Assembly: GCF_901765095.1 (NCBI RefSeq)
Contig: NC_044034.1
Span: 62,626,339 to 62,690,338 of the forward strand
DNA: 64,000 nt
Direction of reading: 5' to 3'
DNA from: Microcaecilia unicolor
Lineage: Eukaryota
Positions 49 through 60,505 of the stretch are shown here, one piece after another (position 1 is the stretch's first letter; every line of letters begins with the position of its first letter). Below the pieces are notes generated by a model. The model was not told the origin of the DNA. It saw nothing but the letters and a program-made list of their open reading frames with translations, and ran no database searches. The translations under genes and the position numbers were made by a program.

Positions 49-636
49 ATGCTCGTGGCCAAAATTCAGTCTTACCAGCTCTACACGAGCATACACATGC
101 GGAACAATGTGCGGCAGTTGGCGGGCTTGGTGGACAAGCTCCCTCCTGAGCAAGCCAAGCCATTTCAGGAGGTGGTCAGGCAGCTGAAGGCGTGCAGAAA
201 ATTCCTGGCCAGAGGGGTGTATGACACCTTTGATGTTGCGTCCAGGGCCGCTGCTCGAGGTGTGGTGATGTGCAGACTCTCATGGCTGCGTGCCTCCGAC
301 CTGGAGAATAGGATCCAGCAGCGGATTGCGGACTCGCCTTGCCGTGCGGATAATATTTTTGGAGAGAAGGTCGAACAGGTGGTAGAGCAGCTCCACCAGC
401 GGAATACCGCTTTCGACAAGTTCTCCCGCCAGCAGCCCTCAGCTTCTACCTCCACAGGTAGACGTTTTTATGGGGGAAGGAAGACTGTTCCCTACTCTTC
501 TGGCAAGCGTAGGTACAATCCTCTTTCTCAACAGCCTGCGGCCCAGGCTAAGGCCCAGCGCGCTCGCTCTCGTCAGCAGCGTGCGCCTCAGCAAGGCCCC
601 TCGGCTCCCCAGCAAAAGCAAGGGACGAGCTTTTGA
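49..636 (+). CDS. DIRS ORF1 (Gag-like), basic Q/R-rich C-terminus
   Basis: 195-aa ORF immediately upstream of and overlapping the pol ORF in a -1 arrangement. No recognisable zinc knuckle, so the call rests on position and composition only. Confidence 0.45.
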   Translation: MLVAKIQSYQLYTSIHMRNNVRQLAGLVDKLPPEQAKPFQEVVRQLKACRKFLARGVYDTFDVASRAAARGVVMCRLSWLRASDLENRIQQRIADSPCRADNIFGEKVEQVVEQLHQRNTAFDKFSRQQPSASTSTGRRFYGGRKTVPYSSGKRRYNPLSQQPAAQAKAQRARSRQQRAPQQGPSAPQQKQGTSF

Positions 637-2560
637 CTGGCTCCAGCAGAGCATAGCCGCCATCCAAGTGTCAGTGCCGGGCGATCTACCGGTCGGAGGG
701 AGGTTGAAAGTTTTTCACCAAAGGTGGCCTCTCATAACCTCCGATCAGTGGGTTCTTCAAATAGTCCGGCAAGGATACACCCTCAATTTGGCCTCCAAAC
801 CTCCAAATTGCCCACCGGGAGCTCAGTCTTACAGCTTCCAGCACAAGCAGGTACTTGCAGAGGAACTCTCCGCCCTTCTCAGCGCCAATGCGGTCGAGCC
901 CGTGGCATCCGGGCAAGAAGGGCTGGGATTCTATTCCAGGTACTTCCTTGTGGAAAAGAAAACAGGGGGGATGCGTCCCATCCTAGACCTAAGGGCCCTG
1001 AACAAATATCTGGTCAAGGAAAAGTTCAGGATGCTTTCCCTGGGCACCCTTCTCCCCATGATTCAGGAAAACGATTGGCTATGCTCTCTGGACTTGAAGG
1101 ACGCCTACACGCACATCCCGATACTGCCAGCTCACAAACAGTATCTGCGATTTCAGCTGGGCACACGTCACTTCCAGTACTGTGTGCTACCCTTTGGGCT
1201 CGCCTCTGCGCCCAGAGTGTTCACGAAGTGCTTGGCTGTAGTAGCAGCGGCACTTCGCAGGCTGGGGGTACACGTGTTCCCATATCTCGACGATTGGCTG
1301 GTGAAGAACACATCCGAGGCAGGAGCTCTACAGTCCATGCAGATGACTATTCGCCTCCTGGAGCTACTGGGGTTTGTGGTAAATTATCCAAAGTCCCATC
1401 TTCTCCCAGTACAGAGACTCGAATTCATAGGAGCTCTGCTGGATTCTCGGACGGCTCATGCCTATCTCCCAGAGACGAGAGCCAACAACTTGTTGTCCCT
1501 CGTCTCTCGGGTACGAGCGTCCCAGCAGATCACAGCTCGGCAGATGTTGAGATTGTTGGGCCACATGGCCTCCACAGTTCATGTGACTCCCATGGCCCGC
1601 ATTCACATGAGATCTGCTCAATGGACCCTAGCTTCCCAGTGGTTTAAGGCTGCTGGGGATCTAGAAGACGTGATCCACCTGTCCACGAATTTTCTCAAAT
1701 CCCTGTATTGGTGGACGATTTGGTCCAATTTGACTCTGGGACGTCCTTTCCAAATTCCTCAGCCACAAAAAGTGCTGACTACGGATGCGTCTCTCCTGGG
1801 GTGGGGAGCTCATGTCGATGGGCTTCACACCCAGGGAAGCTGGTCCCTCCAGGAACGCGATCTGCAGATCAATCTTCTGGAGTTACGAGCGGTCTGGAAC
1901 GCTCTGAAGGCTTTCAGAGATTGGCTGTCCCACCAAATTATCCAAATTCAGACAGACAACCAGGTTGCCATGTATTACATCAACAAGCAGGGGGGCACCG
2001 GATCTCGCCCCCTGTGTCAGGAAGCCGTCAGCATGTGGCTCTGGGCTCGCCGTCACGGCATGGTGCTCCAAGCCACATATCTGGCAGGCGTAAGCAACAG
2101 TCTGGCCGACAGACTGAGCAGGATTATGCAACCTCACGAGTGGTCGCTCAATTCCCGAGTAGTGCGCCAGATCTTCCAGGTGTGGGGCACCCCCTTGGTA
2201 GATCTCTTTGCATCTCGAGCCAACCACAAAGTCCCTCAGTTCTGTTCCAGGCTTCAGGCCCACGGCAGACTGGCATCGGATGCCTTCCTCCTGGACTGGG
2301 GGGAGGGTCTGCTGTATGCTTATCCTCCCATACCTCTGGTGGGGAAGACTTTGTTGAAACTCAAGCAAGACCGAGGCACCATGATTCTGATTGCTCCTTT
2401 TTGGCCGCGTCAGATCTGGTTCCCTCTTCTTCTGGAGTTGTCCTCCGAAGAACCGTGGAGATTGGAGTGTTTTCCGACCCTCATCACACAGGACGAAGGG
2501 GCGCTTCTGCATCCCAACCTCCGGTCTCTGGCTCTCACGGCCTGGATGTTGAGAGCGTAG
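470..2560 (+). CDS. DIRS Pol: reverse transcriptase + RNase H
   Basis: 696-aa ORF. RT motifs: 'RPILDLRALNKY', 'LDLKDAYTHIP', 'QYCVLPFGLASAPRVF' and 'FPYLDDWLV' (YLDD box). RNase H motifs: 'TDASLLGWGA', 'NLLELRAV' and 'QTDNQVAMYYINKQGG'. Confidence 0.85.
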   Translation: MGEGRLFPTLLASVGTILFLNSLRPRLRPSALALVSSVRLSKAPRLPSKSKGRAFDWLQQSIAAIQVSVPGDLPVGGRLKVFHQRWPLITSDQWVLQIVRQGYTLNLASKPPNCPPGAQSYSFQHKQVLAEELSALLSANAVEPVASGQEGLGFYSRYFLVEKKTGGMRPILDLRALNKYLVKEKFRMLSLGTLLPMIQENDWLCSLDLKDAYTHIPILPAHKQYLRFQLGTRHFQYCVLPFGLASAPRVFTKCLAVVAAALRRLGVHVFPYLDDWLVKNTSEAGALQSMQMTIRLLELLGFVVNYPKSHLLPVQRLEFIGALLDSRTAHAYLPETRANNLLSLVSRVRASQQITARQMLRLLGHMASTVHVTPMARIHMRSAQWTLASQWFKAAGDLEDVIHLSTNFLKSLYWWTIWSNLTLGRPFQIPQPQKVLTTDASLLGWGAHVDGLHTQGSWSLQERDLQINLLELRAVWNALKAFRDWLSHQIIQIQTDNQVAMYYINKQGGTGSRPLCQEAVSMWLWARRHGMVLQATYLAGVSNSLADRLSRIMQPHEWSLNSRVVRQIFQVWGTPLVDLFASRANHKVPQFCSRLQAHGRLASDAFLLDWGEGLLYAYPPIPLVGKTLLKLKQDRGTMILIAPFWPRQIWFPLLLELSSEEPWRLECFPTLITQDEGALLHPNLRSLALTAWMLRA

Positions 2561-2562
2561 AC

Positions 2563-3597
2563 TTTGCCTCTTTGGGTCTGTCAGAGGGTGTCTCCCGCAT
2601 CTTGCTTGCTTCCAGGAAAGATTCCACTAAGAGGAGTTACTTCTTTCTATGGAGGAGGTTTGCCGTCTGGTGTGACAGCAAGACCCTAGATCCTCGCTCT
2701 TGTCCTACACAGACCCTGCTTGAATACCTTCTGCACTTGTCTGAGTCTGGTCTCAAAACCAAATCTGTAAGGGTTCACCTTAGTGCAATCAGTGAATACC
2801 ATTACCGTGTGGAAGGTAAGCCGATCTCAGGACAGCCTTTAGTTGTTCGCTTCATGAGAGGTTTGCTTTTGTCAAAGCCCCCTGTCAAACCTCCTACAGT
2901 CTCATGGGATCTCAATGTCGTTCTCACCCAGCTGATGAAACCTCCTTTTGAGCCACTGAACTCCTGCCATCTGAAGTACTTGACCTGGAAGGTCATTTTC
3001 TTGGTGGCAGTTACTTCAGCTCGTAGAGTCAGTGAGCTTCAGGCCCTGGTAGCCCAGGCCCCTTGCACCAAATTTCATCATAACAGAGTAGTCCTCCGCA
3101 CTCACCCTAAGTTCTTGCCAAAGGTTGTGTCGGAGTTCCATCTGAACCAGTCAATTGTCTTGCCAACATTCTTTCCCCGTCCTCATTCCTGCCCTGCTGA
3201 ACGTCAGCTCCACACATTGGACTGCAAGAGAACATTGGCCTTCTATCTGGAGCGGACACAGCCCAACAGACAGTCCGCCCAATTGTTTGTTTCTTTTGAT
3301 CCCAACAGGAGGGGAGTGGCTGTGGGGAAATGCACCATATCCAATTGGCTAGCAGATTGCATTTCCTTCACTTACACCCAGGCTGGGCTGGCTCTTGAGG
3401 GTCATGTCACGGCTCATAATGTTAGAGCCATGGCAGCGTCGGTAGCCCACTTGAAGTCAGCCACTATTGAAGAGATTTGCAAAGCTGCGACGTGGTCATC
3501 TGTCCACACATTCACATCTCATTACTGCCTGCAGCAGGATACCCAACGCGACAGTCGGTTCGGGCAGTCAGTGCTTCAGAATCTGTTCGGGGTTTAG
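2563..3597 (+). CDS. DIRS tyrosine recombinase (phage-integrase-like YR domain)
   Basis: The frame of track ORF 1708..3597 continues directly after the pol stop. Motifs 'LSESGLKTKSVRVHLSAI', 'VAVTSARRVSEL' (Arg box) and 'HTFTSHY' (C-terminal His/Tyr region) are typical of DIRS/Ngaro YRs. The part of that ORF upstream of 2560 overlaps RNase H out of frame and is not considered coding. Confidence 0.7.
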   Translation, partial: FASLGLSEGVSRILLASRKDSTKRSYFFLWRRFAVWCDSKTLDPRSCPTQTLLEYLLHLSESGLKTKSVRVHLSAISEYHYRVEGKPISGQPLVVRFMRGLLLSKPPVKPPTVSWDLNVVLTQLMKPPFEPLNSCHLKYLTWKVIFLVAVTSARRVSELQALVAQAPCTKFHHNRVVLRTHPKFLPKVVSEFHLNQSIVLPTFFPRPHSCPAERQLHTLDCKRTLAFYLERTQPNRQSAQLFVSFDPNRRGVAVGKCTISNWLADCISFTYTQAGLALEGHVTAHNVRAMAASVAHLKSATIEEICKAATWSSVHTFTSHYCLQQDTQRDSRFGQSVLQNLFGV

Positions 3598-3750
3598 GAT
3601 CCAACTCCACCCCCCAAGGCCCATGTTTTATTCTGTTCCAGGCTGCACTCTCAGTTAGTTGGAAAAACTGTTAGGTCAATCTCAGTTATGTCCTCGCCGT
3701 TGCGAGGCCCAATTGACCATGTTTGTTGTTTTGAGTGAGCCTGGGGACTA

Positions 3751-9949: not shown

Positions 9950-10130
9950 GTTCAGCAAGCAGGTCAGGTTTTCAGGAAATCCCTAATGAATGTGAATGAG
10001 AGAGATTTGCATACAATGGAGATAGTTTCCATTCAGCTCTTTCATGCATATTTATCTTCATTAGATGCAAATCTCTCTCATGCATATTCATTATCAATAT
10101 TCTGAAAACCTGACCTGTTTGCTGCACTCT
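9950..10130. mobile_element. short palindromic MITE ('caggtcaggttttcagga(a/t)atcc...' TIR family)
   Basis: Self-complementary ~180 bp. Related copies at 21290-21425, 25130-25255 and 40725-40890. Confidence 0.5.
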
Positions 10131-11679
10131 CCTACAACCCTTAACTTTAGTGTACAATAATGCCTTTGCTGACTGGCATCAGTGTTTTTGTTGTAGCTTG
10201 AGCCATGTTGGTTATCCTATGAGGATAATTTTATAACAGGTCACGTAGGCTATAAGCATATATCCTGTCTTCTAATATCCCAGATGCCGGGTTTTAAAAA
10301 TTGCACCATGGCACCTAGGATTTCTCACCCCAGTTAATTGCTTACTTGGCACCCACTGCCACTCATAATAGAGCACATGTACTGGGGGGGGGGGGGGGGG
10401 GATAAAGGATCATGTCCATCTGCACCATAGGAATCTTTTTACATTTGAGCTGCACTATGTACCACTCTTCTCGCCTCAGTCTCAAGAGAAGTCCGTTTTC
10501 CATTTTTTTTAAACACCTCATTACAGATGTGCCATCAAGGCAAAAGGGATGAGAAAAGGCTTAAACATGTTTCTATGTACTTAATGGCAAACATTTACAC
10601 CTGCTTCCGAGCAGGCCTAAATATCTGTGGTTTCATTGTAGCTGCAATTTTTGCAGCTTTTCTGGGACAAATGTATACAAACACATGTGCCTTTAAAAAG
10701 TAGGGCCAAAATAGGTGCTCACTTATCCTCCCAGCCTAGGTGACCTGCTTTAAAATTGGGCTTACAGGGAGCAGTGTTCATTGTCATCATATCCAGTTCA
10801 TGTTAATCATATAATTATTTAATTATCTTTAACTGGGTCTCATTGTTACCATTTTGAATCTGGTGCTGCCAGGAGAAGGAACAACTGAGGATTGGCCCTT
10901 CCCAGGATCACCTAGACCGCCAAGAATTGTTTCAGGTAGGCTGGAGGGTGTAAGGGGGGGGGGGGGTATCTGCATATTAGTAAGTCTCATGGTGAACTAA
11001 TCTGTGGTGAAATGGTTTTTTATTTGTTATTTACCGCAGCTTTGCAATTCCCTCCCCACTCCCCAAATGTCAGTGCTATCTGACCTTGGCATGCCTGTTT
11101 CCCCTCCCACAGTTAACTGGATAAGTTTTGACCAGATATCAAGCTGTCTAGCTAAAATCTAGTCTCTGCAGTGGTGAGGGAACCCAGGGAAAAATGAAAC
11201 CCAGCGATTTGTTCAGGTTACACCAAAATTTGCCTGGAAAAATAATTTTAATATCAACTTTGTAGCTTTCTATGTTGTTTTTCATCTTCCTTTTTCCTCT
11301 TTCATACTTTCCACTCTAATATTGCCCACCAATATTCTTTTTGTTCATTGGTATTGTGTAGCAGTTGACTTTTGGCTTTCATATCCTTCAAAATGAAATG
11401 CCATTGTCTGTCATGCCAACCAGGAATTGCACCAGTCATCATCCAATATCTCCCTGCTGCAGTGTGCCCACCTCTTGATATCTTTCTATTTCCATGACTT
11501 TACCATAGTTACAGATAATCTCATTTTCTTTAGAAATTGTTGCAAAGTTGTATCTAAAATTTGTAGGAAAACAAGTGGCAGTAGTAGTATTATATGCAGG
11601 AAAAGATGTACTAAATGTATATGGTTTCTGGGAAGCATTATACCAGTGTTATACCATGATTTGTTGTATGTTTCATTAG

Positions 11680-13330: not shown

Positions 13331-13959
13331 AGTGGTTAGGATTCTATCAAATATCTTCTGAAAATCCAGATACATTGCATCAACCAACTTCCTATTATAT
13401 TTTACTAGCTTGGTAAGACAAGACTTTTATTAGATAAATTCATGCTATCTATTTCCTATTAAATCACGTCTATACATATACCTAGTCGGGCAGCAGAATG
13501 CCTTTTTGTTTGGAGGGCCAAGCTCTGCCTCCAACCCCACCCATGGTCTGTCCCCAGCTCCAGCATATCCCCTTACCTAACATCCCATAACCCTCCCCCT
13601 CCCATGGCATGCAGCATCCTTCCCTACCTTTGAACCTCCCACCACAGTGCCTAGTATTTCTCTCCTCCCCCCCCCACCCCATATCCAGCAATTCTCTGCC
13701 CCCCCCCCCCACGACATGTTTTGTGCCTTACCTCCAAAAGCATAGAGGCCAGCTGGCGCGGGGACTTGATCATCTGTGCATGCTTATGGCCTGCCTGCTC
13801 CCTCCCCCTCCAAACTTCTTATTTCATGCTCATGGCCCCGCGCCTGCCACCTTCAGTGCTTTTGGTGCTGAGCCCATTGGAGTATTGCTGCCCTTGAGGA
13901 GGGAGGTAAGGTACTAAACTCGTTGTAGGGAGAGAGGAAGGTGGAGAGAAGGAGAAACA

Positions 13960-21289: not shown

Positions 21290-21425
21290 CAGCAAACAGG
21301 TCAGGTTTTCAGGATAACCCTAATGAATGTGCGTGAGAGAGATTTGCTTACAATGGAGATAGTTTCCATTCAGATCTCGCTCATGCATATTCATTATGGA
21401 TATTCTGAAAACCTGACCTGTTTTT
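21290..21425. mobile_element. short palindromic MITE (same family as 9950-10130), inside the duplicated block
   Basis: 'caggtcaggttttcaggataaccctaatgaatgtg...cattatggatattctgaaaacctgacctg'. Confidence 0.45.
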
Positions 21426-23803
21426 CTGCACTCGAGGACTGAACTCCTACATCCCTGTCCTAGTGTACGTATCCCTTTGCTGACTGACATCAGTGTTTTT
21501 GTTGTAGCTTGAACCATATTTGATTTACTGAAGGTCATAGAAGATATATTTGCTTGAGTTGGTTATACTGTGAGGATAATTTTATAACAGGGCAGCTAGG
21601 CTATGAACACACATGGGCGTATTTTCTGGCTTCTAATATCCCAGATGCCGGGTTCTAAAAATTGCACCATGGCACCTGGGATTTCTTACCCCAATTATTT
21701 CCTTATTTGGCAGCCACTCAGAATAGAGCACATGTACTGGTGGTGGTGGTGGTGGGGAGGGGGGGGGGGGGGGGGGGGGATAAAGGACCATGTCCATCTG
21801 CACCATGGGAATCTCTTTACATTTGAGCTGCACTATGCACCACTCTTCTCACCTCAATCTCAAGAGACTTCCATTTTCCATTTTTATTTAACACAACTCA
21901 TTATAGATGTGCCATCAAGGTGAAATGAATGAGACCATCTTGAACATGTTTGTATGTACTTAATGGTAAACATTTACACCTGCTTGCGAGCAGGCATAAA
22001 TGTCTGTGGTTTCATTGTAGCTGCAATTTTTGCAGCTTTTCTGAGGAAATGTATACACACATGTGCCTTTAAAAAGAAGGGCCAAAATAGGTGCTCACTA
22101 TCCCTCCCAGCCTAGGTGACCTGCTTTAAAATGGGCTTACAGGGAACAATATTCACTGTCATCATATTCAGTTCGTTAATCATATAATTATTTAATTATT
22201 TTTAACTGGATATATCAAGTGACTTATCCAGTTAAGCCTAATCTGCTGAATATAGTCAATTAAAGATAACTGTTATCTGTTATCTTAGGCTTGTCATATA
22301 TGCAGCCAGATTTAACCAGAAATGTTTTACCAGATAGCTCTAAAGGGGGTAGTTATAATACACAATTTTTGACTGTAACTTGGCATTAAATGGCAAAATT
22401 ATACATTGTTTTACTGTAACACATGCAAATAACCTAATTATTATTCTAATAAAGTAACAAAAATTAACCCTGCAAGTTCCATTATCCGTGGAAATACAGT
22501 GCAAGCTCAAAGCTGGCATTAATTGTCCTGCTTAGGAGCATCTGTCCACTAACATGTGGCCCAGTGACCCTAGCCATCATCATAAAGGGGCTAGGACTGC
22601 ACAAAGCTGAACAGTGTTCCCCATCCCAAACATTCCCACCTCCTTGTAGGCTACCTCTATCCATTCCTGGTGGTATAGGGAGTCTGGGGTAGGAACAATC
22701 CCCAGTACCCTTACATGGTGGCTGACTCTTTGTTGTAGTACTATGAGACTACCACTAGGGCTGATTGGTGTCACTTTGAATCTGGTGCTGCCAGGGGAAG
22801 GAGCAACTGAGGATTGCCCCTACCCTGGATCACCTAGACCACCAAGAATTGATTGAAGTAGGCTGGGGGAGGAATATCTTTAAGGGGAAAGGGAGCACTG
22901 ATCAGCTTTGTGCAGCTCCACTCCTTTTCCCTAGGAGCATTGGGCCATGCAAGCTTTGTGCAGCTCCACCCCCTTTCCCTAGGAGCATCGGGCCATGCAT
23001 TAGTAGCCACTTGCTTCCAGGGAGCAGAATAATGGATCTTGCATTATTGATTACAAGTTGCATTATTAATTTCCTACAGGAGCCACTAACCTGCGGTGTT
23101 GAGTTACTAAACATTAGTAAGTCTCATGGTAAACTAATCTGTGGTAAAATGCCTTTTTATTTTTTTATTGCAGCTTTATAACCTCCCCCACTAAATGTCA
23201 GTGCTATCTGTCCTTGGCATGCCTGTTTCCCCTCCCACAGTTAAGTTTTGACCAGATATCAAGCTGTTTTGCTAAACTCTACAGTGACTGCAGTGGTATG
23301 AGAACCCAGGGAAAAATGAAACACAGTGATTTGTCCAGGGAACACCAAAAATTGCCTGGAAAAATAATTTTAATATCAACCTTGAAGCTTTCTAAGTTGT
23401 TTTTCATCTTCCTTTTTTCTTGTTTCATACTTTCCACTCTAATATTACCCACCAATATTCTTTTTGTTCACTGGTATTGTGTAGCAGTTGATTTTTTGGC
23501 TTTCATATCCTCCAAAATGAAATGCCATTGTCTATCATGCCAACCAGGAATTGCACCAGTCATCATCCAATATCTCCCTGCTGCAGTGTGCCCACCTCTT
23601 GATATCTTTCTATTTCCATGACTTTACCATGGTTACAGATAATCTCATTTTCTTTAGAAATTGTTGCAAAGTTGTATCTAAAATTTGTAGGAAAACAAGT
23701 GGCAGTAGTAGTATTTTATGCAGGGAAAGATGTACTAAATGTATATGGTTCCTGGGAAGCATTATACCAGTGTTATACCATGATTTGATTTATGTCTCAT
23801 TAG

Positions 23804-23900: not shown

Positions 23901-25129
23901 GTAAGTAAAGGCCTAACTTCCAGTTCTTCTGGGTATTGGGTTTTTAGGAATCAGATTGCCTTTCTGAAGAAGTGGTTGGTTCAAAAAAGAGAGGCAATAT
24001 GGATCTGTAGATGAAAGCGGTCAGAAGAGCATAACGGATCACAGTGAAGTTCAAAACAGAGCAAAGCTTTATTGGAAAATAAAGCTTTGCTGTGTTTTGA
24101 ACTTCATTGTGATCCGTTCTGTTCTTTCTAAAGAAGTGCCGTCTCAGTGAGACTTAAAGATGGACAGGAGGAAAAAGGCTTTGCTTATTGCAAAGGAAGA
24201 AGGGAGTTCAAAAGGTAGACAGTAAAAGAAAAAGGGTTGAGGAATCAAAGTGATCAGAGAGCACAGGATAAGTAAGGGTATGTAACAGTTTTAGGGATGA
24301 AATTTAGAAAGGAACAGATGAGATCAAGACCTTCAAAACAGAGAATGCGGAAGGATCAATTTAATATAAAGATGTTTGGAGAACAGGGAAAACAAAAAAC
24401 AGACGTGCAGGAGAAGGAAATGCTTACTACTGCATTCTGAATGAATTCCAAGGTAGCAAGGTAAGAAATGAGTGAACCAGAAAAAAGGTAACTACATTAG
24501 TCAATGTGAGAGAGGACTGGAACGTCATAGGCGTAGCCAGGTTTTGATGTCAGGGGGAGCAAACGTTTGTAAAGTAGTCACCAGTTGGTGTCGGCTAGTG
24601 TTGTCACTCAGGTGGGGTGGCTGTGGCAATGATTTAACAGTGGCTGCCTTTTTTGTGTCCCGCCTATGAGGAAAATAGGAAGTTACATCAGGAGGAGGGA
24701 TGCAGCAGAGAGCAGGCAGCCTGTCGTCTTAACTACAAGTAAAAATATTCAAATTGTGACCATCACCTCAGGGACTACACAACCACTGTTATACTCCTTC
24801 CACTGCTAGACACTTTTAAAAATTAGATGGGCTTTTGTTTTTATGGTGACTGTACAGGATGTAGAGACCAGTAGTCCCGAGCATTTTTACTTTGGGTAAC
24901 AAGGGCAATCAACCCCATAGCCTACTTTCAAATAGGGCCAGAAACTTTGTGAAATAACACAAAATCGTGCATGAAGACACTCAAAACTTATACTGAAAAC
25001 TTACCACACCATAACAGCCCTAACTCACTTATAAAAAGACAGTGACAAATATTATATTGGGCCCTAGAGCACCAATGTACCTGCTACTTGGAAACTGGCA
25101 CAAACACTACATGCTAGCACAGGGGTGGG

Positions 25130-43806: not shown

Positions 43807-45311
43807 TTCTTTGCTAGTTCTTTATCAACCATAAAGATCATTATGTTTTGCGGGTAGTAACCAATTTGTTATACCTTCTCTACGAAAACATGTCCTTGTC
43901 TCTTCCCAGTAAACAGCTTTTTGTTGTGTCGCACCTACCCTTAGGAATTCTCTTCCTGTGGATATCTGCTATGAATTTTCTTTACTTAAATTTAAAGTGC
44001 TCTTAGATACCTGGCTATTTGGCCAGGCTTTCTCAGAATTTGTAGTTTGAGATCTTGGATTTTTTTCCTTTTTTTTTTTATATCCCCCTCTTGTAGGGAG
44101 CTGGGTAGCTCCCCTGGTAGGCCTTACCTGGCTACCTTTGGGGATAAACACAACCAACAATATCAGGTATACAACATAGGCAATTTTATTGTATGGCAGA
44201 AAGAATATCATAGATAATACAATAAATGTAAGGTACTTACAGTACAGGAGAATAATCTGGCAAAGACAATGAAATAATATTGTTAGCTGAGGAGAAAGTT
44301 CTTTCTCAGATACTGGCTGCAAAGCACTGCTCAGGGACTGCGTCAGGTACTTTCCCAAATTTGTCTTGTGCAGTTCATTATATACGTAGGTTATCTTAGA
44401 ATAGTTTAAACACATGCTTCTGTGCTTTTGCTACATCAGCAGGAAACTAATCAGGCTGCAGAAACATAAGGATGTCAGATATATCTATTATGCCCCTGGT
44501 ACACATTGTCTGTTTAGCAAAAGGTGGTATCGTGTGTGTCACTATGGATCCTCATGGGAGCTGGGTGAGGCCAGCTGCAATGAGTTATATGTACTGACTT
44601 GCTTAGGCTATCAGATTGTGTACGTACAAGGTCATGAATAGTTCAGGGTTCTTACACAGTATTGCTAACTGTACAGGTATTATGGTGGAGGGCTATCACT
44701 CTGTATTCTTTTCTGGTTTTTTAAAAATGTTTAATTACTGTTGTGCTATTACATTTGTCTTAATCCCAGTGTTTCTTGTTTATTGATTATATATTCGAAT
44801 ATTGTCTGTATTGTTGTAGTATTATAGCTTTTAATGGATTTAAAATTTTATTTTGTTTTATATTCACATAATAGGTCACAATAGATTTACAATATACAGA
44901 GGTATGTTTCTATGTTGACATTGGACCTTAGGCACTGTTTCCTTGACTGTAGGGTTATTGCTATTCCTCAATGGGATGCTATATTTGCATCCAGCTTTAA
45001 CTTCACAAGTGGCTCAATCAAGGCGGTAAAGAATAAAAACAAAATCAGCAGAACATAATATAAATATTGTGAATTCTAACTTTTAAAATATTTGGCCTGT
45101 AATCCTACACTTGTGTTGCTCCCTTCCCAGTTAGCACATTTGAACAGCTCAGGGAACATTTCCTAGCCTGAAGTCCAGAGGGATGACTCCTTCACAAATC
45201 ATCTACAGCACTGCTTGATGATATCCCTCTCTGTATTCCGGTGGTGTGTCCAGCCCCAACTGGATCCAGGTTATTTATTGATAAGAGAATCACTCTATTG
45301 TTTATTTGCAG

Positions 45312-45446
45312 ATGGATCTTGATGGGCGTGAACTAAAGCAAGAAGTAAGAATGAAATTAATGGACCTAAAACTACTACTTCCTCCAAAGACATACAAGAT
45401 GAATTTTGCACCCAGTGTGACATCTTTACTTGCACTACAAAATCAG
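45312..45446 (+). other. candidate coding exon (135 nt, phase 0-0): 'MDLDGRELKQEVRMKLMDLKLLLPPKTYKMNFAPSVTSLLALQNQ'
   Basis: Acceptor 'gtttatttgcag|' and donor 'AATCAG|gtacag'. Single open frame. Confidence 0.3.
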
Positions 45447-45721
45447 GTACAGTGCTGAAGTCCACTTTTTTTATGTTGATTTTTAAAAAAAATCATCTTT
45501 ATTCAGTTTATAACAAAAAGAAGCACATATCAGTAAAGAAACAAAACAAAGTATGTATCCAAAAAGCAAATACCCCAACCCACCCCACCACCCAACCTCT
45601 ACTAACAGCTATTAGTGCATACCCATATGGTTTTTAACCATTACCATAATAAATATAGTTAATGGCAGGGCCGTAGCCACGGGTGGGCCTGGGGTTTTGG
45701 TTCAGGCCCACCCAGCAGTGG

Positions 45722-46060
45722 AGGCAGCAGGCTGAACTCCGATCCCGCATCTGCCTCCCTCTCTCTCACGGCAGCGCTTCCCAAACGCTGCCCACCGCCG
45801 CCACGATCGCAGGATTTACCTCCCTCCGTCTCAGCACTCAGCAGCAGTGGTAGCGAATCATACACGCTGCCTCCTTCTAACCCGGAAGCGGCAGAGGAGA
45901 CGCTTCCGGGTTAGAAGGAGGCAGCATGTATGATTCGCTACCGCTGCTGCTGAGTGCTGAGACGGAGGGAGGTAGATCCTGCGATCGTGGCGGTGGTGGG
46001 CAGTGTTTGGGAAGCGCTGCCGTGAGAGTGAGGGAGGCAGATGCGGGAACGGAGCTCTGC
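45722..46060. repeat. near-perfect long palindrome (~2 x 165 bp arms, centre ~45896)
   Basis: Left arm 'ggctgaactccgatcccgcatctgcctccctctctctcacggcagcgcttcccaaacgctgcccaccgccgccacgatcgcagg...' matches the reverse complement of 45900-46060 with only a few mismatches. It generates mirrored near-identical ORFs 45659..45865(-) and 45926..46162(+). Confidence 0.85.
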
Positions 46061-46109
46061 CTGCACTGTAAATTTTTTTTGGGGGGAGAAGAGGGCTCCG
46101 GGCGGGCAG

Positions 46110-46900
46110 GTGGAATCGCAGGACATGGATGGGAGCGGGAGGGGCGAGAGGATAATCGCTGATGGCTGGAGGGAGGGGACAGGGGAGAAAAGAGAATTGC
46201 TGGGTATGGTATAGATGGATAGAGGGGGGCAGGGGCAAGAACAGAATTGCTGGGTATGGCTGGATAGGGGCAGGGCAGAGAGGAGAATTGCTGGGTATGG
46301 TATAGATGGATAGAGGGGGGCAGGGGCAAGAACAGAATTGCTGGGTATGGCTGGATAGGGGCAGGGCAGAGAGGAGAATTGCTGGGTATGGTATAGATAG
46401 ATAGAGGGGGGCAGGGGCAAGAACAGAATTGCTGGGTATGGCTGGATAGGGGCAGGGCAGAGAGGAGAATTGCTGGGTATGGATGAATGGAGGGGGCAGG
46501 GGAGGGAAGAGAATTGCTGGGGATGGATGGATGGAGGGGACAAGGGGAGAGAGAAGAGAATTGCTGGGTATGGATGGTTAGAGGGGGCAGGGGAGAGAAA
46601 AGAATTGCTAGGTATGGATGGCTGGAGGGGAGAGGAGAGTTGCTGGACATGCGTGGATGGAGGGGAGGAAATAGGAGATAGGAAGGTTGCTGGACATGGG
46701 TGTATGAAGGGGAGGGCAGGGGAGAGGAGGGTTGCTGGACATGGATGGAGGGAAGGACAGGGGAGAGGAGGGTTGCTGGACATGGATGGAAGAGAGGGAA
46801 GGGAGAGAGAAGAAATGCTGGATATGGATGGAGGGAATGGAAGAGTGAGGAAGGAGATGAGATGAGGGAAAAGGAAGAGAGGAGAAAAACTGCACATGGA
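46110..46900. repeat. minisatellite (~45-50-bp units, first three as perfect 97-bp higher-order repeats)
   Basis: 'gagaattgctgggtatggtatagatggatagaggggggcaggggcaagaacagaattgctgggtatggctggataggggcagggcagagag' three times, then degenerating units '...gttgctggacatggatgga...'. ORFs 45877..47130, 45938..46897 and 46470..46865 are artefacts. Confidence 0.8.
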
Positions 46901-47734
46901 TGAAGAAAATAGGCAGAAGCTGGATCCACTGGACAGTCAAGTCTGCGGAGGACCCAGCTTTTACTTATGGATATAGAGCAAGAAATGAAGAAGAAAGGAG
47001 GAAAGTAAAGAAATAAATGGAAAGGAAGCCCTGGAAACAGAGTTAAGAGGACAGATAGCAGCAGAATCGGATACTGGGCCAGCATGTTCAGAAAAACAGT
47101 CACCAGACAACAAAGGTAGAAAAAAATCATTTTATTTTCGTTATAGTGTTTGGAATATGTCCACTTTGAGAATCAGGTGCACAACATTAAAAGTTTATAT
47201 TTATTTACTTATTTTTGGCATTTTATCCCACATTAAACATGAATTAAATTGGAACCTGGGATCATTTAATTTTTTTTTCCTGGAGAGAGTAATGCATTGC
47301 CGCCCCCCCCCCCCCCCAGGCTCTCTCCCCGGCTATAGCCAGCCCTGCAATTTTGAGGGGAGGTGCACAGGTGGACACGGGGGGGGGGGGGGGGGGGGGG
47401 GTGCAGAGGTGGACCGGGGAGAGAGCCTGTTGTTAAACATTTACCAACACACCACTGTCTAGTGCCCACCCATCCAACCTGTTGGCCCACCCAAAAATTG
47501 ACTTCTGGCTACGCCACTGGAAGTTGATGGGAGAGGGAGGATATACATTTTCATGTTTTAGATTAGACATAATTTTTAGTTTGTTGTATTTTAATGTTTT
47601 TATAGTGCTGTATACTGCAAATGGGTAAATGGGATATAAGCATTTTAAATAAATTAAATAATTGTCAGAACTCCCTAATTCTCTTATTTGTCCTGTTTAT
47701 CCATCTTGAATAGATAGTCCAGTGGTTCCCAAAC

Positions 47735-47935
47735 CTAGTCCTGGGGGCACCCCAGCCAGTCAGGTTTGAAAGATACCCACAATGAATATTCATGAGAGAC
47801 ATTTGCATGCAATAGAGGCAGTACATTCATATCTCTCATGAGTATTCACTGTGGGTATCTTTCAAACCTGACTGGCTGGGGTGCCCCCAGGACTAGGTTT
47901 GGGAAACACTGAGATAGTCCCTTCTCAATATGGCT
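47735..47935. mobile_element. palindromic hAT-type MITE (TIR 'CAGTG(G/T)TTCCCAAACC'), 8-bp target-site duplication 'AGATAGTC'
   Basis: 'tagatagtc|cagtggttcccaaacctagtcctggg...cccaggactaggtttgggaaacactg|agatagtcc'. Confidence 0.6.
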
Positions 47936-50461: not shown

Positions 50462-51821
50462 GTAAAAATCATGTCTGTTTCACAAGGGTAAAAGATGTTT
50501 TTTCAGCACAAACTTGACCTTCACATTAGGACAACACCTTGAACAATACCGTAAGATCAGAATTTCTTTGCGTGATCAATGGACTGACTTAGCAGGAAAA
50601 AGATCCGTGTGGCCCCATTAGCCACTACAGAGCTATAAGTTGAACAGATTGTACTTTGTCCATTCTTTTTTTTTAACTCCAAACATTTTCATTGAATGAA
50701 CAAGAAAATACATCCACATGATACAGGATAGGGTGATTGCTTTGCACATACCCATATACAATTGTCCAGTCCTTACACATAATTGCTAGTGTATAACCTT
50801 ACTGCCACAGGACAGATGTTTAATATTTAAATCTGAGGATAATTCTTTAAATAAGTATTAATTTATATAAAAGAAGATAATTTTAATGTGTTTTAGCTTT
50901 TTACAAGCTGACAACAGCACAGGTTAATAGACACATAAATCTCTGTGCTATGCAACTAATGCTGAACCTGAATGCCATTCAGTGAGCTTCATTGATATCC
51001 ATATTTTACTTCTCCGGATTTACAATCACAAGTGCGAATCGTAAGAGATTTTACAGTTGACCAGGAAAGTGGCATGTTCTTTTCTAGGCCCTAGAGGAAA
51101 AGAAGAGGTACTGCAGTTGATTGCCACCCTTCTTGTGCTGCAGCTCTTGAGGTTCACACAAGTGCTACAACTGATCACCTTCAAGTCTCTAATGAAACTG
51201 GATGACTCATCCACTGAGAGGTTTGTTCATAAAATAGAATAAAATTCTATGCAGTCAGAATGTATGAGTTTTTTTTTCTGTTCCTGTTTTAAAATTGTCA
51301 TGAAAAATAATAGAAATAAACAAATGTTAGCATTAAAGGTATGATAATTTATTTGTAGCATTTGTATCCCACATTTTCCCACCAATTTGCAGGCTCAATG
51401 TGGCTTACATTTGCCGTCATGGCAGTTGCTTAAGCTATCATAGTGAATCCTATAGGGTCTGGGAATAGAGCCATGTGTTATCCGAGATTTTTTTTTTTTT
51501 TTTTGGGGGGGGGGGGGGTTTGTATAAATATTTTGTCAGGGGGTAGAGAAGTATAGCAGTTTCCCAGTTTCCTCCTACTTTTTTGTGCTTCCAGCAAAAC
51601 TGGAACTAGAGCAGGGGAATCCAGTCAGAGGCAGGCCAACTGATCAAAATTGGCCTGAAGTCTGGGTTTGGGTTTTGGCCAAACAGTCAAGCGCATTTTC
51701 AGCTGAAACTGAAACGCTTCTTCTTTCCCCCTCCACCGGGCTGCTTGACCCCACCCAAGGGCCCTCCCTTTAAATGCCCTAGTAGTCTAGTGGCCTTTTC
51801 TGGGTAATTGTGATCCTCAGT

Positions 51822-52039: not shown

Positions 52040-52235
52040 GTGGCCACTAGACCAGTGTTTCCTAAGTCCTGTCCTGGAGTACTCCTTGCCAGTTAGGTTT
52101 CAGGATATCTACAATGATTATGCATGAAACAGATTTGCCTATAATGGAGTCAGTGTATGCAAATCAAGTTCATTCATATTCATTGTGGATATCCTGAAAA
52201 CCTAACCGGCAAGGGGTACTCTATGACTGGACTTG
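52040..52235. mobile_element. palindromic hAT-type MITE (same family as 47735), 8-bp target-site duplication 'CACTAGAC'
   Basis: 'gccactagac|cagtgtttcctaagtcctgtcctgg...ggacttgggaaacactg|cactagacc'. Confidence 0.55.
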
Positions 52236-52677
52236 GGAAACACTGCACTAGACCACCAAAGCACTTAAAGGTAGACCGGGGGAGTCTTCAGATGGTGGGA
52301 AGACGGAGGGGTTGTGGTCGGGAGGAGCTGCATTCTGCTGGGGGTGGCAGTGCTGTTTTCGGTTTTGTCTTTGCTTTCAGCTGAAACCCAGTGGCAAATT
52401 TCAGCTGCTGATTCAGTTTTGGTTGAAACCAAGAACCCCAGTTTCGGTCACCCTCAAGATCTAGTATCATGAACCTTCTGCTTGAACATTTCCCCTACTT
52501 TGTCACTGCAATGGAAGGAGATACCTTTGCAGTGCCTAGGTTTCCTACTGTATTATACCAAAGAGTGCTGGTATGACTTTCATTCCAAATGGCGCGTTTG
52601 ATTGCTAATTGTTGCAATTTGTGTACTTCTCTATTTTTGAATTAGAAAGAAAGCATGGGACAGGCACGTGGTGTCAC

Positions 52678-53100: not shown

Positions 53101-54285
53101 GGAAGAGGAGGCGATGGTGGATGCTGTGGATGGGCAGACTGGATGGGCCATTTAGCCTTTATCTACCTTCATTTTTATGTTTCTATGCAGAAAGCCAGCC
53201 TCATGGTTGAGCCTGCACTCTACCATGAAATTAGTGCTTCATAAATACTGCAGCATGCTATAAATTAATGAGCATGCAAATTATGGTAGTAATAGACACC
53301 TGATTGCTAAATGTCAACTTTCCTGTCGGGGGGGGGGGGGGGGGGGGTCCTGAGCAGTGATCGGTTCATGCACTGACAGGATGGGTGACATTTTAAAATA
53401 AAAACACAAGCATGCTGCGTCATTTCACGTTGGCCCCATGCCCCCCTCCCCACTTGATGTACTAATAAACATTCACCTCAACCCAACCTTTTCCCTCCTC
53501 CTCCAAAAACGTATCCCTAGTGTCTAGTAGCATCTCCCCTCCCGGTAGAATGGCCCTCCTCTCTCTCCACCACACTTCCAAAAAATTCCCTGGTAATCTA
53601 GTGTGATACCCCACCCCATGACCCCTTGCCTGGGACCCTCCCCAGACCTCGTGCATTAAGTGAGGCAGGAGCAAAACCCATTTGCTCCTATCTACGGCAT
53701 TGCCATCTTCAAAATGGTGGCTTGATGCACTGGATGCAGTCAATTTGCCATATAATGTTTTGGAAGTGGGAGTTAGATTGGGAGGAGGCTACTAGACTAC
53801 CAGGGCAACTTGTTTTTTTAATATTAAAGGAAGGGAGAGTTCAGGTTGGGGATTCTCACTGCAGAAAGCAATCCGGGAGTGTTGGGATTAGAGTGAGAGA
53901 GGGGGTGCTGATAGACGCCCACTCCTCTCAACAAACCTTTCTACACTGCCCCAGGCCTGGAAAAAAGTTTCCCATGCACAACATACGTCAAACTTTTTTT
54001 TTTTTTGTTAATGACCACATTACTATGCATTTTAATGCAGTGTGCAGTAATGGTTTCCACGCAGGTTTAACAGAAGCATTTGTGTGTTCCTCTGGAGGAC
54101 TCTAGGAGGCTATTTTCTAAAAGCACATACACACATATGTTGTCTTAAATACCTACAACTTGTTGACTATTATATTATGTATCAGATGTTTGCCATTATC
54201 TTTATTGGTATATAACATAACAGGTAATAAGCACAACTTGCGAAAGTACAATAGTAATTAACGTAGATCCCTAGACCCCACTCCA

Positions 54286-54490
54286 GTGGCGTAGCTAGGT
54301 GGGGTGCCAGGGGAGCTGCCTTTCCCCCAAACGGAGTTCTGCCAGCGCCTATTTTTTTTGTTGTGCAGCACTGAAAATGTGCGCCGGCACCGGCCGAAGT
54401 CCGCTCTCTCTCCCCCTGCGCCATCAACCTGGCTGAACCGGGCTATGCTGCCCCACCCCCACCCTTGGATTCCCACCCCTGCAGTGTGTT
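54286..54490. mobile_element. 5' end of a third copy of the 'CAGTGGCGTAGC' hAT-like element family (3' end not identified)
   Basis: 'cagtggcgtagctaggtggggtgccagggg...gcgccggcaccggcc...' resembles the 60091 copy ('...gacaccggcacctgcgc...'). Confidence 0.35.
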
Positions 54491-54942
54491 CCATATCATT
54501 GTATAGTCTCTATCAAAGTTAAGTCCAAAGTCAAGAAAAACTAATACAGCCATAATAGTGGCATCTTTCAGTCTTAATTCCGAATTATTAAAGAAAACAA
54601 ACCGCACATGGGCACTCGATGTATGTAAGGCATCCAAATGCGCAAAAAGTGCTTCTTAGCTTTTTAACCTTTGAGATTGACTGACCTGCGCTCCATATTA
54701 AGGAGTTTGTGATCTGAATTTGACATTGAGTAAGGGTGGGCGGGTCAGAGCGAATCCATTGAAGCAATATGCAGCACTTGACGATCAAGGTTGCCTTACA
54801 AAGAAATAAAACTGGAAACTTGTGTACCCTTCACAATTGTGGATGTATCATCCAAAAGAAAAGCTTTGGTCCCCTCGGTGTCGCAACCTGGCTACGCTTC
54901 TGGATGGACTCTAGGACCACCTCAAATATACCCCCCCGTTTA

Positions 54943-55058
54943 CTAAGCCACGCTAGTGGCTGCCATGCATTACTGCCGACACAGCCCATTCACTTTGAAT
55001 GGGCTGCGTCGGCATTGCTGTGCGGCAGCTGGTAGCGCAGCTTAATAAACAGGGGGGA
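54943..55058. mobile_element. short MITE with 'CCCCCCGTTTACTAAGCC' / 'GCTTAATAAACAGGGGGG' TIRs
   Basis: Internal 'cagcccattcactttgaatgggctg' hairpin. Relatives at 57545-57700, 59436-59585 and 60030-60505. Confidence 0.45.
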
Positions 55059-55679: not shown

Positions 55680-56200
55680 ACATGGGGATATGGAGATGTG
55701 TGCTATTGAGGGGAGGGAAGAGAACAAGTTGTGGGCATGTGCTTGGGGGGGGGGGGGGGGGGGGGTAGGGGATAGAGAGTAAGCTGATATGCTGAGGATG
55801 TGTGCCATGGGGATAGAGAACAAATGGGAATATGGGCTGCAGGAGCAGATGGAAAACAAGCTGGGGATATCTGCCATTGGGGGGTAGGGTTGATAGAGAG
55901 CAAACTGGGGATGTCAGGAATGGTGGATAAAGGGATAGAGAGCAAGCTGGGGATGTGTCAAGAATAGTGGATAGAGAGCAAGCTGGGGGTGTATGCCACA
56001 TAGGGGCAGGAGGGATACAGAGCAAACTGGGAGTATATGTCACCAAGGAATGGATAGAGAACAAGCGGGGAGTTAGTAAGAGAGAACTAGTGGGTAAAGA
56101 GGCTAATTGTGGAGAAACAACTGGGGAGGGCTTTGTGGGGGAGGGGGGTAGGTAGAAAGAGGTAGCTATAAGATGAAGAGAGAGATGGATGTATTGTGTG
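55680..56200. repeat. minisatellite (~38-40-bp units 'ggatagagagcaagctggggatgtg...')
   Basis: Repeated 'gatagaga(g/a)caa(g/a)ctgggg(a/g)t' units. The motif is related to the 46110-46900 minisatellite ('agaattgctgggtatgg...ggatagagggg'). Confidence 0.6.
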
Positions 56201-59814: not shown

Positions 59815-60010
59815 GCACAGTGGTTCCCAAACCTGGTCCTGGAGGCACCCCAACCAGTCAGGTTTTCTAGATATCCACAATGAATATTCATGAGAGAGAT
59901 TTGCATACCAAGGAGGCAGTACATGCCTCATTGTTAAAGCTTTTTGGGACCCCTATTCATTGTGGATATCCAGAAAACCTGAGTGGCTGGGGTGCCTCTA
60001 GGACCAGGTT
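59815..60010. mobile_element. palindromic hAT-type MITE (third copy of the 47735 family)
   Basis: 'cagtggttcccaaacctggtcctggaggcacccc...ggggtgcctctaggaccaggtttgggaaccactac'. Confidence 0.5.
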
Positions 60011-60029
60011 TGGGAACCACTACACTAAC

Positions 60030-60339
60030 CCCCCCCTCGTTTATAAAGCCACGCAGCAATGCTGACATAGCCCATTCAAAGTGAATGGGCCAGTGGCGTA
60101 GCCACAGGTGGGCTTGGGTGGGCCAGGGCCCACCCATTTATGGCTCAGGCCCACCCAACAGTAGCACATGTTTAGTGCTAACTGGTGGAAATCCCAAGCT
60201 CCACCAGCTGAAGATTTTCCCCTGATGGTAACAAAAACGCTACTCTCCGTGACACCGGCACCTGCGCATGCTCAGTTTTCAGAGCATGCCTGCTGCCAAG
60301 GTAGAAAGAAGCGTTTTCCCACCAGCTGAGATCATTTTT

Positions 60340-60370
<31 letters not shown>

Positions 60371-60505
60371 GGGGGGAGGAGAACACTTGGTGCCCAACCA
60401 ATTCTTGCCTAGGCCCACACAAAATCTGTTGTCTGGCTACGCCCCTGGAATGGGCTGTGTCGACATTAGCGCACCGGCAACCACTAGTGCGGCTTTGTAA
60501 ACGGG
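60030..60505. mobile_element. MITE of the 'GTTTA(C/T)AAAG' TIR family, split by a nested insertion
   Basis: 'ccccctcgtttataaagccacgcagcaatgctgacatagcccattcaaagtgaatgggc' ... [insert] ... 'gaatgggctgtgtcgacattagcgcaccggcaaccactagtgcggctttgtaaacggggg'. Confidence 0.5.
60091..60447. mobile_element. 357-bp non-autonomous hAT-like element ('CAGTGGCGTAGCC...GGCTACGCCCCTG') with perfect 8-bp target-site duplication 'GAATGGGC', nested in the MITE above
   Basis: Target-site duplication at 60083-60090 and 60448-60455. TIRs are seen directly. The interior has T15 then G27 homopolymers (60335-60376). Confidence 0.65.

Follow-up and report, generated by a model that had tools for sequence, protein, structure and literature searches.

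The Composite Element at 45666-47519

The DNA considered here is a stretch of 64,000 nucleotides from Microcaecilia unicolor (contig NC_044034.1, positions 62,626,339 to 62,690,338 of the forward strand). We call it the window and count all positions from its first nucleotide. Its region 45666-47519 is bounded by the inverted termini of a hAT-like family of transposons and harbours a long palindrome, a G-rich minisatellite and runs of C and of G (Table 1). An earlier note on the same DNA had described this 1.85-kb unit as a composite copy of such a family. Both parts of the description hold. The termini are shared with a 357-bp copy at 60091-60447, which is flanked by an 8-bp target site duplication (TSD), and only a few family blocks, about 60 bp at the left and three short ones at the right, are common to the two copies.

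The terminal inverted repeats (TIRs) read CAGGGCCGTAGCCA at 45666-45679 on the forward strand and CAGTGGCGTAGCCA at 47506-47519 on the reverse strand; 12 of their 14 positions are complementary. A degenerate pattern of the terminus yielded 8 matches in the 64-kb window, where 0.77 would be expected. Two TIR-like matches with two mismatches each, at 24526 and 49203, were discarded as consistent with this chance expectation.

In the alignment of the left sides (A1), the first 60 bp or so of the element pair with the left end of the copy at 60091-60447, with a mean column identity of 78% overall. In the alignment of the right sides (A2), the right end of that copy is matched in three blocks: GATCA with the adjoining T run, the G run, and the final 58 bp or so. 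Sidedness is kept, left pairing with left and right with right, and the mutual orientation is correct. The interior has no other match in the window. The stretch 46901-47292, most of which is the AT-rich filler of Table 1, has a GC content of 36%.

Table 1. Positions of the parts of the element and of the reference copy of its family, in window coordinates
Feature	Position	Strand	Remarks
Left terminus	45666..45726	+	14-nt TIR CAGGGCCGTAGCCA and subterminal inverted motif GGGTGGGCC...GGCCCACCC; pattern match, alignment A1
Left palindrome arm	45727..45890		164 nt; GC 62%; CpG o/e 0.99
Palindrome spacer	45891..45900		10 nt, asymmetric, GCAGAGGAGA; centre 45895.5
Right palindrome arm	45901..46064		164 nt; CpG o/e 0.86; 9 substitutions relative to the left arm, 4 at CpG
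T8 G6 junction, then AGAAGAG	46073..46086	+	14/14 match to 60342-60355; resembles the T15 G27 AGGAGAAC module of 60091-60447
G-rich minisatellite	46116..46840	+	about 17 units of 41-50 bp; core TTGCTGG(G/A)(T/C)ATGG...GGGGCAGGGG...AGAGAA
Youngest minisatellite block	46197..46469	+	3 x 91-bp higher-order units (50 + 41)
AT-rich single-copy filler	46901..47255		no match elsewhere in the window
Family module GGGATCATTTAA-T9	47257..47278	+	homologous to GAGATCA-T15 of 60091-60447 (A2)
Copy-specific 100-bp insert	47279..47378		between T run and G run; holds C15 at 47303-47317
G23 homopolymer	47379..47401	+	position equivalent to G27 of 60091-60447 (A2)
Right terminus	47460..47519	+	two subterminal GCCCACCC motifs and TIR TGGCTACGCCACTG; pattern match, alignment A2
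Reference family copy, 357 bp	60091..60447	+	perfect 8-bp TSD GAATGGGC on both sides; paralogous empty site

The Family and Its Classification

The family to which the termini of 45666-47519 belong has been mobile, and the proof comes from the copy at 60091-60447. When one GAATGGGC octamer is removed and the flanks of this copy are rejoined, they match 54931-55057, a paralogous repeat, in an alignment free of gaps. Because this empty site aligns gap-free, the family can be addressed as a cut-and-paste one that generates 8-bp duplications. The target was itself a palindromic repeat with 62-nt arms and a 3-nt spacer, represented by 54931-55057 and by the flanks of 60091-60447; one of its copies was hit by the 357-bp element.

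The TIRs of hAT elements measure about 10-25 bp and start with (C/T)A(G/A)NG, and CAGGGCCGTAGCCA and CAGTGGCGTAGCCA are short TIRs of this form. The 8-bp TSD typical of hAT is seen in the family, namely at 60091-60447 and in seven metagenome elements discussed below, but not in clean form at 45666-47519 itself. P elements, however, also make 8-bp TSDs, and the open reading frames (ORFs) of at least 130 amino acids in the window include no transposase of an autonomous hAT partner, which would have the same termini and carry a BED finger, an RNase-H-like DDE domain and the C-terminal dimerisation domain of hAT. The superfamily call, therefore, rests on the form of the TIR and the length of the TSD.

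A scan of metagenome contigs of the JGI for CAGTGGCGTAGCCANNGGTGGGC revealed the same 23-nt terminus in 54 contigs (L001-L054; examples are L007, where it lies at 2768-2790, L022, L039 and L043). Where the right end was found as well, the elements measure 250-743 bp, with one weaker pairing at 1190 bp; among those of 250-743 bp, seven are flanked by perfect 8-bp TSDs. The ratio of observed to expected CpG (CpG o/e) is 0.9-1.2 in five of six contigs checked, i.e., they are not CpG-depleted, and by their sequence they look like invertebrate host DNA. The terminus, CAGTGGCGTAGCCA-NN-GGTGGGC, is thus kept in a vertebrate-like genome depleted of CpG and, within metagenomes, in host DNA that is rich in CpG and invertebrate-like. 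As a small pointer, this suggests a hAT lineage that is old or has spread horizontally.

In the literature, a search with a 12-mer of the TIR found no match. A 10-mer led to BmMITE-15 of the silkworm, a 'Pegasus-like' miniature inverted-repeat transposable element (MITE) with the TIR CAGTGGCGTACCTA and an 8-bp TSD (PMC2997013). The first 10 nt of its TIR (CAGTGGCGTA) are identical to ours, the 8-bp TSD is that of our family, and coding capacity is absent from both.

Paired copies of the family number three in the 64 kb. The one known as the 'third copy', 619 bp at 54284-54902, has the TIRs CAGTGGCGTAGCTA and CAGAAGCGTAGCCA, and a weaker similarity runs further inward. It is without the subterminal GGTGGGCC/GGCCCACC motifs and without a TSD, and it has no interior in common with the other copies. 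It probably represents a different subfamily.

The Palindrome

A near-perfect palindrome of 2 x 165 bp had been reported at 45722-46060, with its centre near 45896. The self-comparison that the earlier note called for recovers the inverted duplication. It is real, but its arms are 164 nt long and its borders and centre are those of Table 1. The 9 mismatches between the arms are not accompanied by any indel and amount to a divergence of 5.5%. Four of the nine are changes of CpG to TpG or CpA. By our own count, about 13% of the CpG site-copies in the arms have been lost, as compared to changes at about 2% of the other positions per arm; this ratio is that expected for methylated germline DNA. 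Because the arms are diverged to this extent, and with CpG-biased changes, we take the palindrome to be genuine, neither recent nor an artefact of assembly.

In their CpG content the arms stand apart from everything around them. The o/e ratios listed in Table 1 for the two arms have to be compared with 0.19-0.29 for the termini, the minisatellite and the AT-rich filler, and with 0.36 for the window. The source of the arm was, thus, unusually CpG-rich when it was duplicated. The interior of a then-young transposon would fit, and so would a captured fragment of a CpG island or a 5' untranslated region (5' UTR).

Folded as single-stranded DNA, the palindrome reaches -221.5 kcal/mol (z = -37 against shuffles). 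Its inner arm ends read ...GGAAGCG and CGCTTCC..., and neither TSD nor TIR is found at its borders. The left arm adjoins the very point where the homology to the family stops (A1). A second copy of the arms does not exist in the window. About ten close-spaced palindromes are found there, and 45727-46064 is the longest of them.

The Minisatellite

Next to the palindrome lies the G-rich array, which had been placed at 46110-46900; it is there, though somewhat shorter and made of the units of 41-50 bp described in Table 1. Tandem Repeats Finder marks 46173-46842, with periods of 41, 50 and 91. The array contains 351 G and 53 C in 725 positions (48% and 7%, respectively). The motif GGGCAGG occurs 9 times in it, as against 12 times on the forward strand of the whole window. 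A possible enrichment in G-quadruplexes (G4) was dropped, since the array holds only one canonical short-loop G4 motif.

The earlier note saw three identical higher-order units of 97 bp and concluded that the expansion was very recent. The unit, however, measures 91 bp; the copies 46197-46287 and 46288-46378 are identical, and the third one, 46379-46469, differs by one substitution at 46399. To judge from this near-identity, the triplicated block is the latest event in the minisatellite. Recency may, therefore, be granted to this block, but not to the palindrome with its diverged arms. The first two units from the left still have TCGC, as against TTGC in all later ones, which implies that most of the expansion began from a unit already devoid of this CpG.

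A related minisatellite had also been claimed at 55680-56200, downstream of the third copy, with the suggestion that the array is an internal component of the family. A profile of the unit (nhmmer) found nothing significant in the window outside 46116-46836, and this includes 55680-56200. Local alignment of that region to the minisatellite scored 24, as compared to 23.9 +/- 4.3 for shuffled sequences, 92 of 200 shuffles being at least as good. The two tests together rule out 55680-56200 as a related array. The only sequence in the window that is significantly, albeit weakly, related lies at 13500-13730 on the reverse strand (score 30 versus 17.8 +/- 3.0; none of 200 shuffles as good). There, a G12 run is followed by a short degenerate array with GAGAATTGCTGGATATGG, which is identical to the minisatellite core in 17 of 18 positions. 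No family terminus is found near it within 2 mismatches, and the minisatellite is absent from the copies at 60091-60447 and 54284-54902. The idea of a family-internal component, thus, finds no support: the array that had been cited for it is unrelated, the one that is related has no terminus, and the other copies have no array. A MITE with tandem repeats would be recognised by the same array in several copies of the family, which is not what the copies in the window display.

The Homopolymers and the Right-Hand Modules

The run of C15 is where it had been reported, at 47303-47317. The run of G, given as G22 at 47379-47400, comprises 23 nt and ends at 47401. Both had been called acquired. For the G run this is wrong: since T15 G27 stands at the corresponding place of the 357-bp copy (60335-60376), G23 is inherited, and only C15 resides in an insert specific to this copy. 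The proposed comparison with other copies, carried out within the window, accordingly shows the T-run/G-run module to be common to 60091-60447, while the minisatellite and the interior are not. The exact lengths of C15 and G23 must be considered unreliable.

A perfect 16-nt inverted repeat has one arm in the 100-bp insert (47317-47332) and its partner at 47414-47429. The C15/G23 inverted repeat folds no better than dinucleotide shuffles do (z = -1.65).

Runs of at least 11 G or C number 20 in the window, several of them in other repeat families. Junctions of poly-T and poly-G recur: T17G14 at 51488-51518, T15G27 at 60335-60376 and T8G6 at 46073-46086, the last two being parts of the hAT family. 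In another repeat, G18 (10384-10401) and G21 (21759-21779) occupy the same position in two copies, with flanks ...agagcacatgtact[G]ataaaggaNcatgtccatctgcaccat.... It seems that several repeat families here carry long G runs that become longer within them.

Coding and RNA Potential

Mirror-image ORFs on opposite strands had been noticed in the palindrome. They exist, at 45659..45865 on the reverse and 45926..46162 on the forward strand, but they have no meaning. They are a trivial by-product of the symmetry: the ATG of the right-arm ORF was created by the change of a CpG to TpG (C at 45865, T at 45926), the ORF of the left arm starts with GTG, and neither a homologue nor a domain was found. The 68-residue ORF spanning arm and terminus has no homologue among 5.8 billion proteins, the 417-residue ORF across the minisatellite and the right arm none among 1.84 billion representatives, and Pfam recognised no domain in seven ORFs.

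At gathering score, Rfam reported only SNORA17, at 45856-45925 on the reverse strand, with 29.7 bits (gathering score 29) and 70 nt of a model of 132 positions. We rejected it as a structural false positive; an H/ACA snoRNA would show two hairpins with a hinge (H box) and an ACA tail over the whole model, but the match is partial and is centred on the palindrome. With relaxed thresholds, models of plant micro-RNAs (miRNAs) with long hairpins matched on both strands, the best being MIR8622 with 125 bits versus a gathering score of 197. These were rejected, too: all are below gathering score, equal on both strands and driven by the hairpin. A curated family of miRNA or hairpin RNA precursors is, thus, not found at gathering score. 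Mirror-image ORFs and matches to miRNA models should be regarded with caution wherever palindromes are concerned; they are artefacts of symmetry.

A stretch of 137 bp at 45311-45447 on the forward strand, 220 bp upstream of the element, looks like an exon; it is open in one frame, preceded by ...tttgcag and followed by gtacag. If it were one, the palindrome would be intronic. The candidate was dropped, since searches of PDB, Pfam and the set of 5.8 billion proteins yielded no homologue. We regard the element as non-coding and see no hint of a function.

How the Element May Have Been Formed

We consider it likely that 45666-47519 is an inactive, non-autonomous copy of hAT type (8-bp TSD, CAGTGGCGTAGCCA-TIR), the interior of which has been shaped by three ordinary mutational processes. 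The shell of the family would have been retained: some 60 bp at the left and, at the right, the T-run/G-run module and a terminus of about 60 bp. It encloses about 1.5 kb of filler that the other copies do not have. First, a double-strand break or a stalled fork at about 45900 may have been mended by fold-back (snap-back) priming or by intrastrand template switching. A microhomology of 2 nt, CG, would have primed a reverse-complementary copy of the neighbouring 164 nt, which were rich in CpG, and the 10-nt loop would be what remains. Second, a G-rich unit of about 41-50 bp presumably grew to some 17 units by replication slippage or unequal exchange, with the triplication of the 91-bp double unit as the last step. 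Third, the T(n)G(n) tract of the family and the C tract of the local insert were probably lengthened by slippage, like G and C runs throughout this genome.

Several points weigh against this reading. The 8 bp that directly flank the element differ, GTTAATGG on the left versus GAAGTTGA on the right, and without a clean target duplication the unity of the 1.85 kb, as a single old insertion, is only probable. The fold-back mechanism is deduced from geometry, and a microhomology of 2 nt is weak. Finally, the model does not account for arms so rich in CpG in a genome depleted of it; they need a source that was young or resembled a CpG island.

The last point leads directly to a different origin of the arm, which we regard as possible, though unlikely. 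The 164 nt could stem from a CpG island or 5' UTR of the host, a piece of which was captured into the hAT shell through gap filling or template switching, its inverted duplication taking place afterwards or at the same time. The element would then be a Pack-TIR, i.e., a transduplicate instead of a simple deletion derivative. The CpG o/e of 0.86-0.99 and the GC content of 62% in the arms, as compared to CpG o/e values of 0.19-0.29 in termini, minisatellite and filler and 0.36 in the window, speak for this possibility, as does an interior that is not common to the other family copy. It also has precedent, since 208 of 370 animal Pack-TIRs belong to hAT, among them the frog element hAT-N8_XT with a captured 5' UTR of 291 bp (PMC8277862). 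However, no parental sequence was identified, the ORFs of the arms are without homologues or domains, and young sequence derived from a transposable element (TE) would equally give a high CpG content. Moreover, four of the nine differences between the arms fall on CpG, which implies that the arms were methylated like bulk DNA and not protected like an island.

The missing target duplication could also mean that there is no single element at all. A solo left end and a solo right end of two truncated insertions may face each other by chance, or may have been joined by aberrant ('alternative') transposition or deletion, with ordinary genomic DNA in between. Apart from the mismatch of the directly flanking 8 bp, this is supported by the density of the family here (3 paired copies in 64 kb), by an interior without homology to the family and by the alternative transposition documented for the hAT termini of Ac/Ds (bioRxiv 10.1101/2020.01.07.897926). 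We nevertheless rate it as rather improbable. The ends match the correct sides in the correct mutual orientation (A1, A2). Moving the right side by 3 nt yields a TSD-like match of 7 out of 8 (GTTAATGG versus GTTGATGG), for which we estimate a chance of roughly 1% over a few offsets. The T8G6-AGAAGAG beside the palindrome, furthermore, resembles the right-hand module of the family, which suggests that family sequence is present internally.

That the palindrome is a separate fold-back element or palindromic MITE nested in the hAT element is very improbable. Close-spaced palindromes are, of course, common in the window, about ten having arms of 43-83 nt, and 47720-47911 has 4 related copies. The arms of our palindrome, by contrast, have no second copy in the window, neither of the candidate borders shows a TSD, and the left arm adjoins the end of the family homology. 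Because the spacer is short and asymmetric, the inner arm ends are as described above and the borders are free of TIR and TSD, fold-back priming or template switching is favoured over a nested insertion.

A function of the hairpin is scarcely to be expected either, although the two ideas of the earlier note, a fragile or recombinogenic site and a source of hairpin RNA, are legitimate as hypotheses. If transcribed, the palindrome would form a double-stranded RNA (dsRNA) stem of about 160 bp, from which endogenous small interfering RNAs (endo-siRNAs) or piRNAs might arise to silence the hAT family or the source gene of the arm, as in the composite insertions of maize Ac. In its most ambitious form, to which we assign an equally slender chance, the 2 x 164-nt inverted duplication would correspond, in a vertebrate, to the composite insertions of maize Ac and to Mu killer. 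It would be a hairpin carried by the transposon and transcribed by read-through from a promoter nearby, its endo-siRNAs or piRNAs would be directed against the CpG-rich source, be it an autonomous hAT element or a host 5' UTR, and the G-rich minisatellite and the homopolymers would constitute a replication-stalling, structurally polymorphic site. As a precedent, silencing siRNAs are produced from inverted duplications of hAT sequences in Ac/Ds (bioRxiv 10.1101/2020.01.07.897926). The predicted hairpin is very stable, and both strands score with generic models of long-hairpin miRNAs (MIR8622, 125 bits). Yet these scores are far below the gathering score of 197 and symmetric on both strands, and so reflect structure only. 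The arms are not common to other copies of the family, so there is no obvious target; for the exon-like ORF 220 bp upstream no homologue was found, so there is no sign of transcription; and the arms decay neutrally. Small-RNA data on the locus would quickly test whether inverted duplications carried by TEs seed silencing in this vertebrate.

A palindrome made by a chimeric long read or a missed adapter is hardly credible: palindromes and homopolymers are classic contexts of long-read errors, but artefactual palindromes are near-perfect and kilobases long, whereas the arms here are short (164 nt), carry 9 substitutions, about half of them with the signature of CpG decay, enclose an asymmetric 10-nt loop and have unique flanks on both sides.

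Relation to Known Elements

Taken as a decayed hAT copy with a remodelled interior, the element is a new instance of kinds already known. Among the animal TIR elements into which foreign filler has been brought through gap filling with microhomology-guided template switching, those of hAT type are the most frequent (PMC8277862), and MITEs with tandem repeats have been described (PMC3879986); 45666-47519 belongs with such filler-bearing or tandem-repeat-bearing TIR elements.

With non-autonomous hAT elements and hAT-type MITEs, the family shares short subterminal repeats (GGTGGGC/GCCCACC), and its 23-nt terminus is also that of the metagenome MITEs of about 250-750 bp. In contrast to them, our element measures 1.85 kb, about five times a typical copy, has a unique interior of 1.5 kb and lacks a clean TSD. 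Like Pack-TIRs, it has family termini around foreign sequence, a geometry compatible with microhomology-guided template switching and a CpG-rich filler reminiscent of the 5' UTR captured by hAT-N8_XT (PMC8277862). Unlike them, it combines an inverted duplication of the filler with a minisatellite, and no parental gene has been identified.

A terminal cassette around a variable tandem array linked to a simple-sequence tract, with palindromes near the repeats, is also seen in DTC84 and pearl-type MITEs (PMC3879986) and in the fold-back element Tetris (PMC4079207). They belong, however, to other superfamilies, and their array is conserved across many copies of the family, whereas ours is specific to one locus within the window. 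The composite insertions of maize Ac/Ds and the Mu killer-type loci have in common with 45727-46064 an inverted duplication in connection with a hAT element, from which dsRNA could form upon transcription. Those loci differ in holding transposon termini or transcribed transposon sequence, and their siRNAs have been demonstrated; the arms considered here exclude the terminus, match no other copy and are known from sequence alone.

The GC-rich hypervariable minisatellites of vertebrates have GGGCAGGAXG, the Jeffreys core, as their common motif. The array at 46116-46840 resembles them in its units of 41-50 bp, its strong purine/G strand bias and its nine GGGCAGG motifs. Near-identical higher-order units, too, are a shared trait and imply ongoing turnover. 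The likeness is one of sequence; on the side of the differences, the array has no more than one canonical short-loop G4 motif.

The effects to be expected from the element are passive: length polymorphism of the minisatellite, and a potential to form a cruciform or hairpin if unwound or transcribed. Beyond annotation it has little importance; it is a single-locus example of a dead DNA transposon that has gathered an inverted duplication, a minisatellite and homopolymers. As a candidate marker for length polymorphism, the locus is a reasonable choice.

The Surroundings in the Window

The window has a GC content of 42% and, with its low CpG o/e, is full of retroelement ORFs. In these features it has the look of tetrapod DNA that is methylated and rich in transposons. 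At 49-3600 there is a long retroelement, the ORFs of which, of 696 and 629 residues, overlap. The 696-residue ORF (470-2560) contains a reverse transcriptase, and its relatives are of the reverse transcriptase/RNase H type (PF00078); the best of them are proteins of Chrysemys, a turtle, and Pleurodeles, a salamander, with 48-50% identity. In our judgement, the layout of the ORFs suggests a DIRS-like element.

Palindromic, MITE-like repeats of about 190 bp are found at 47720-47911, 59818-60027, 52048-52250, 21300-21417 and 9963-10114, and several of them have the motif TTTTCAGGATATCC...AATGAATATGCAT in common. The first one lies 200 bp to the right of 45666-47519; its arms of 83 nt are 95% complementary and are separated by a spacer of 26 nt.

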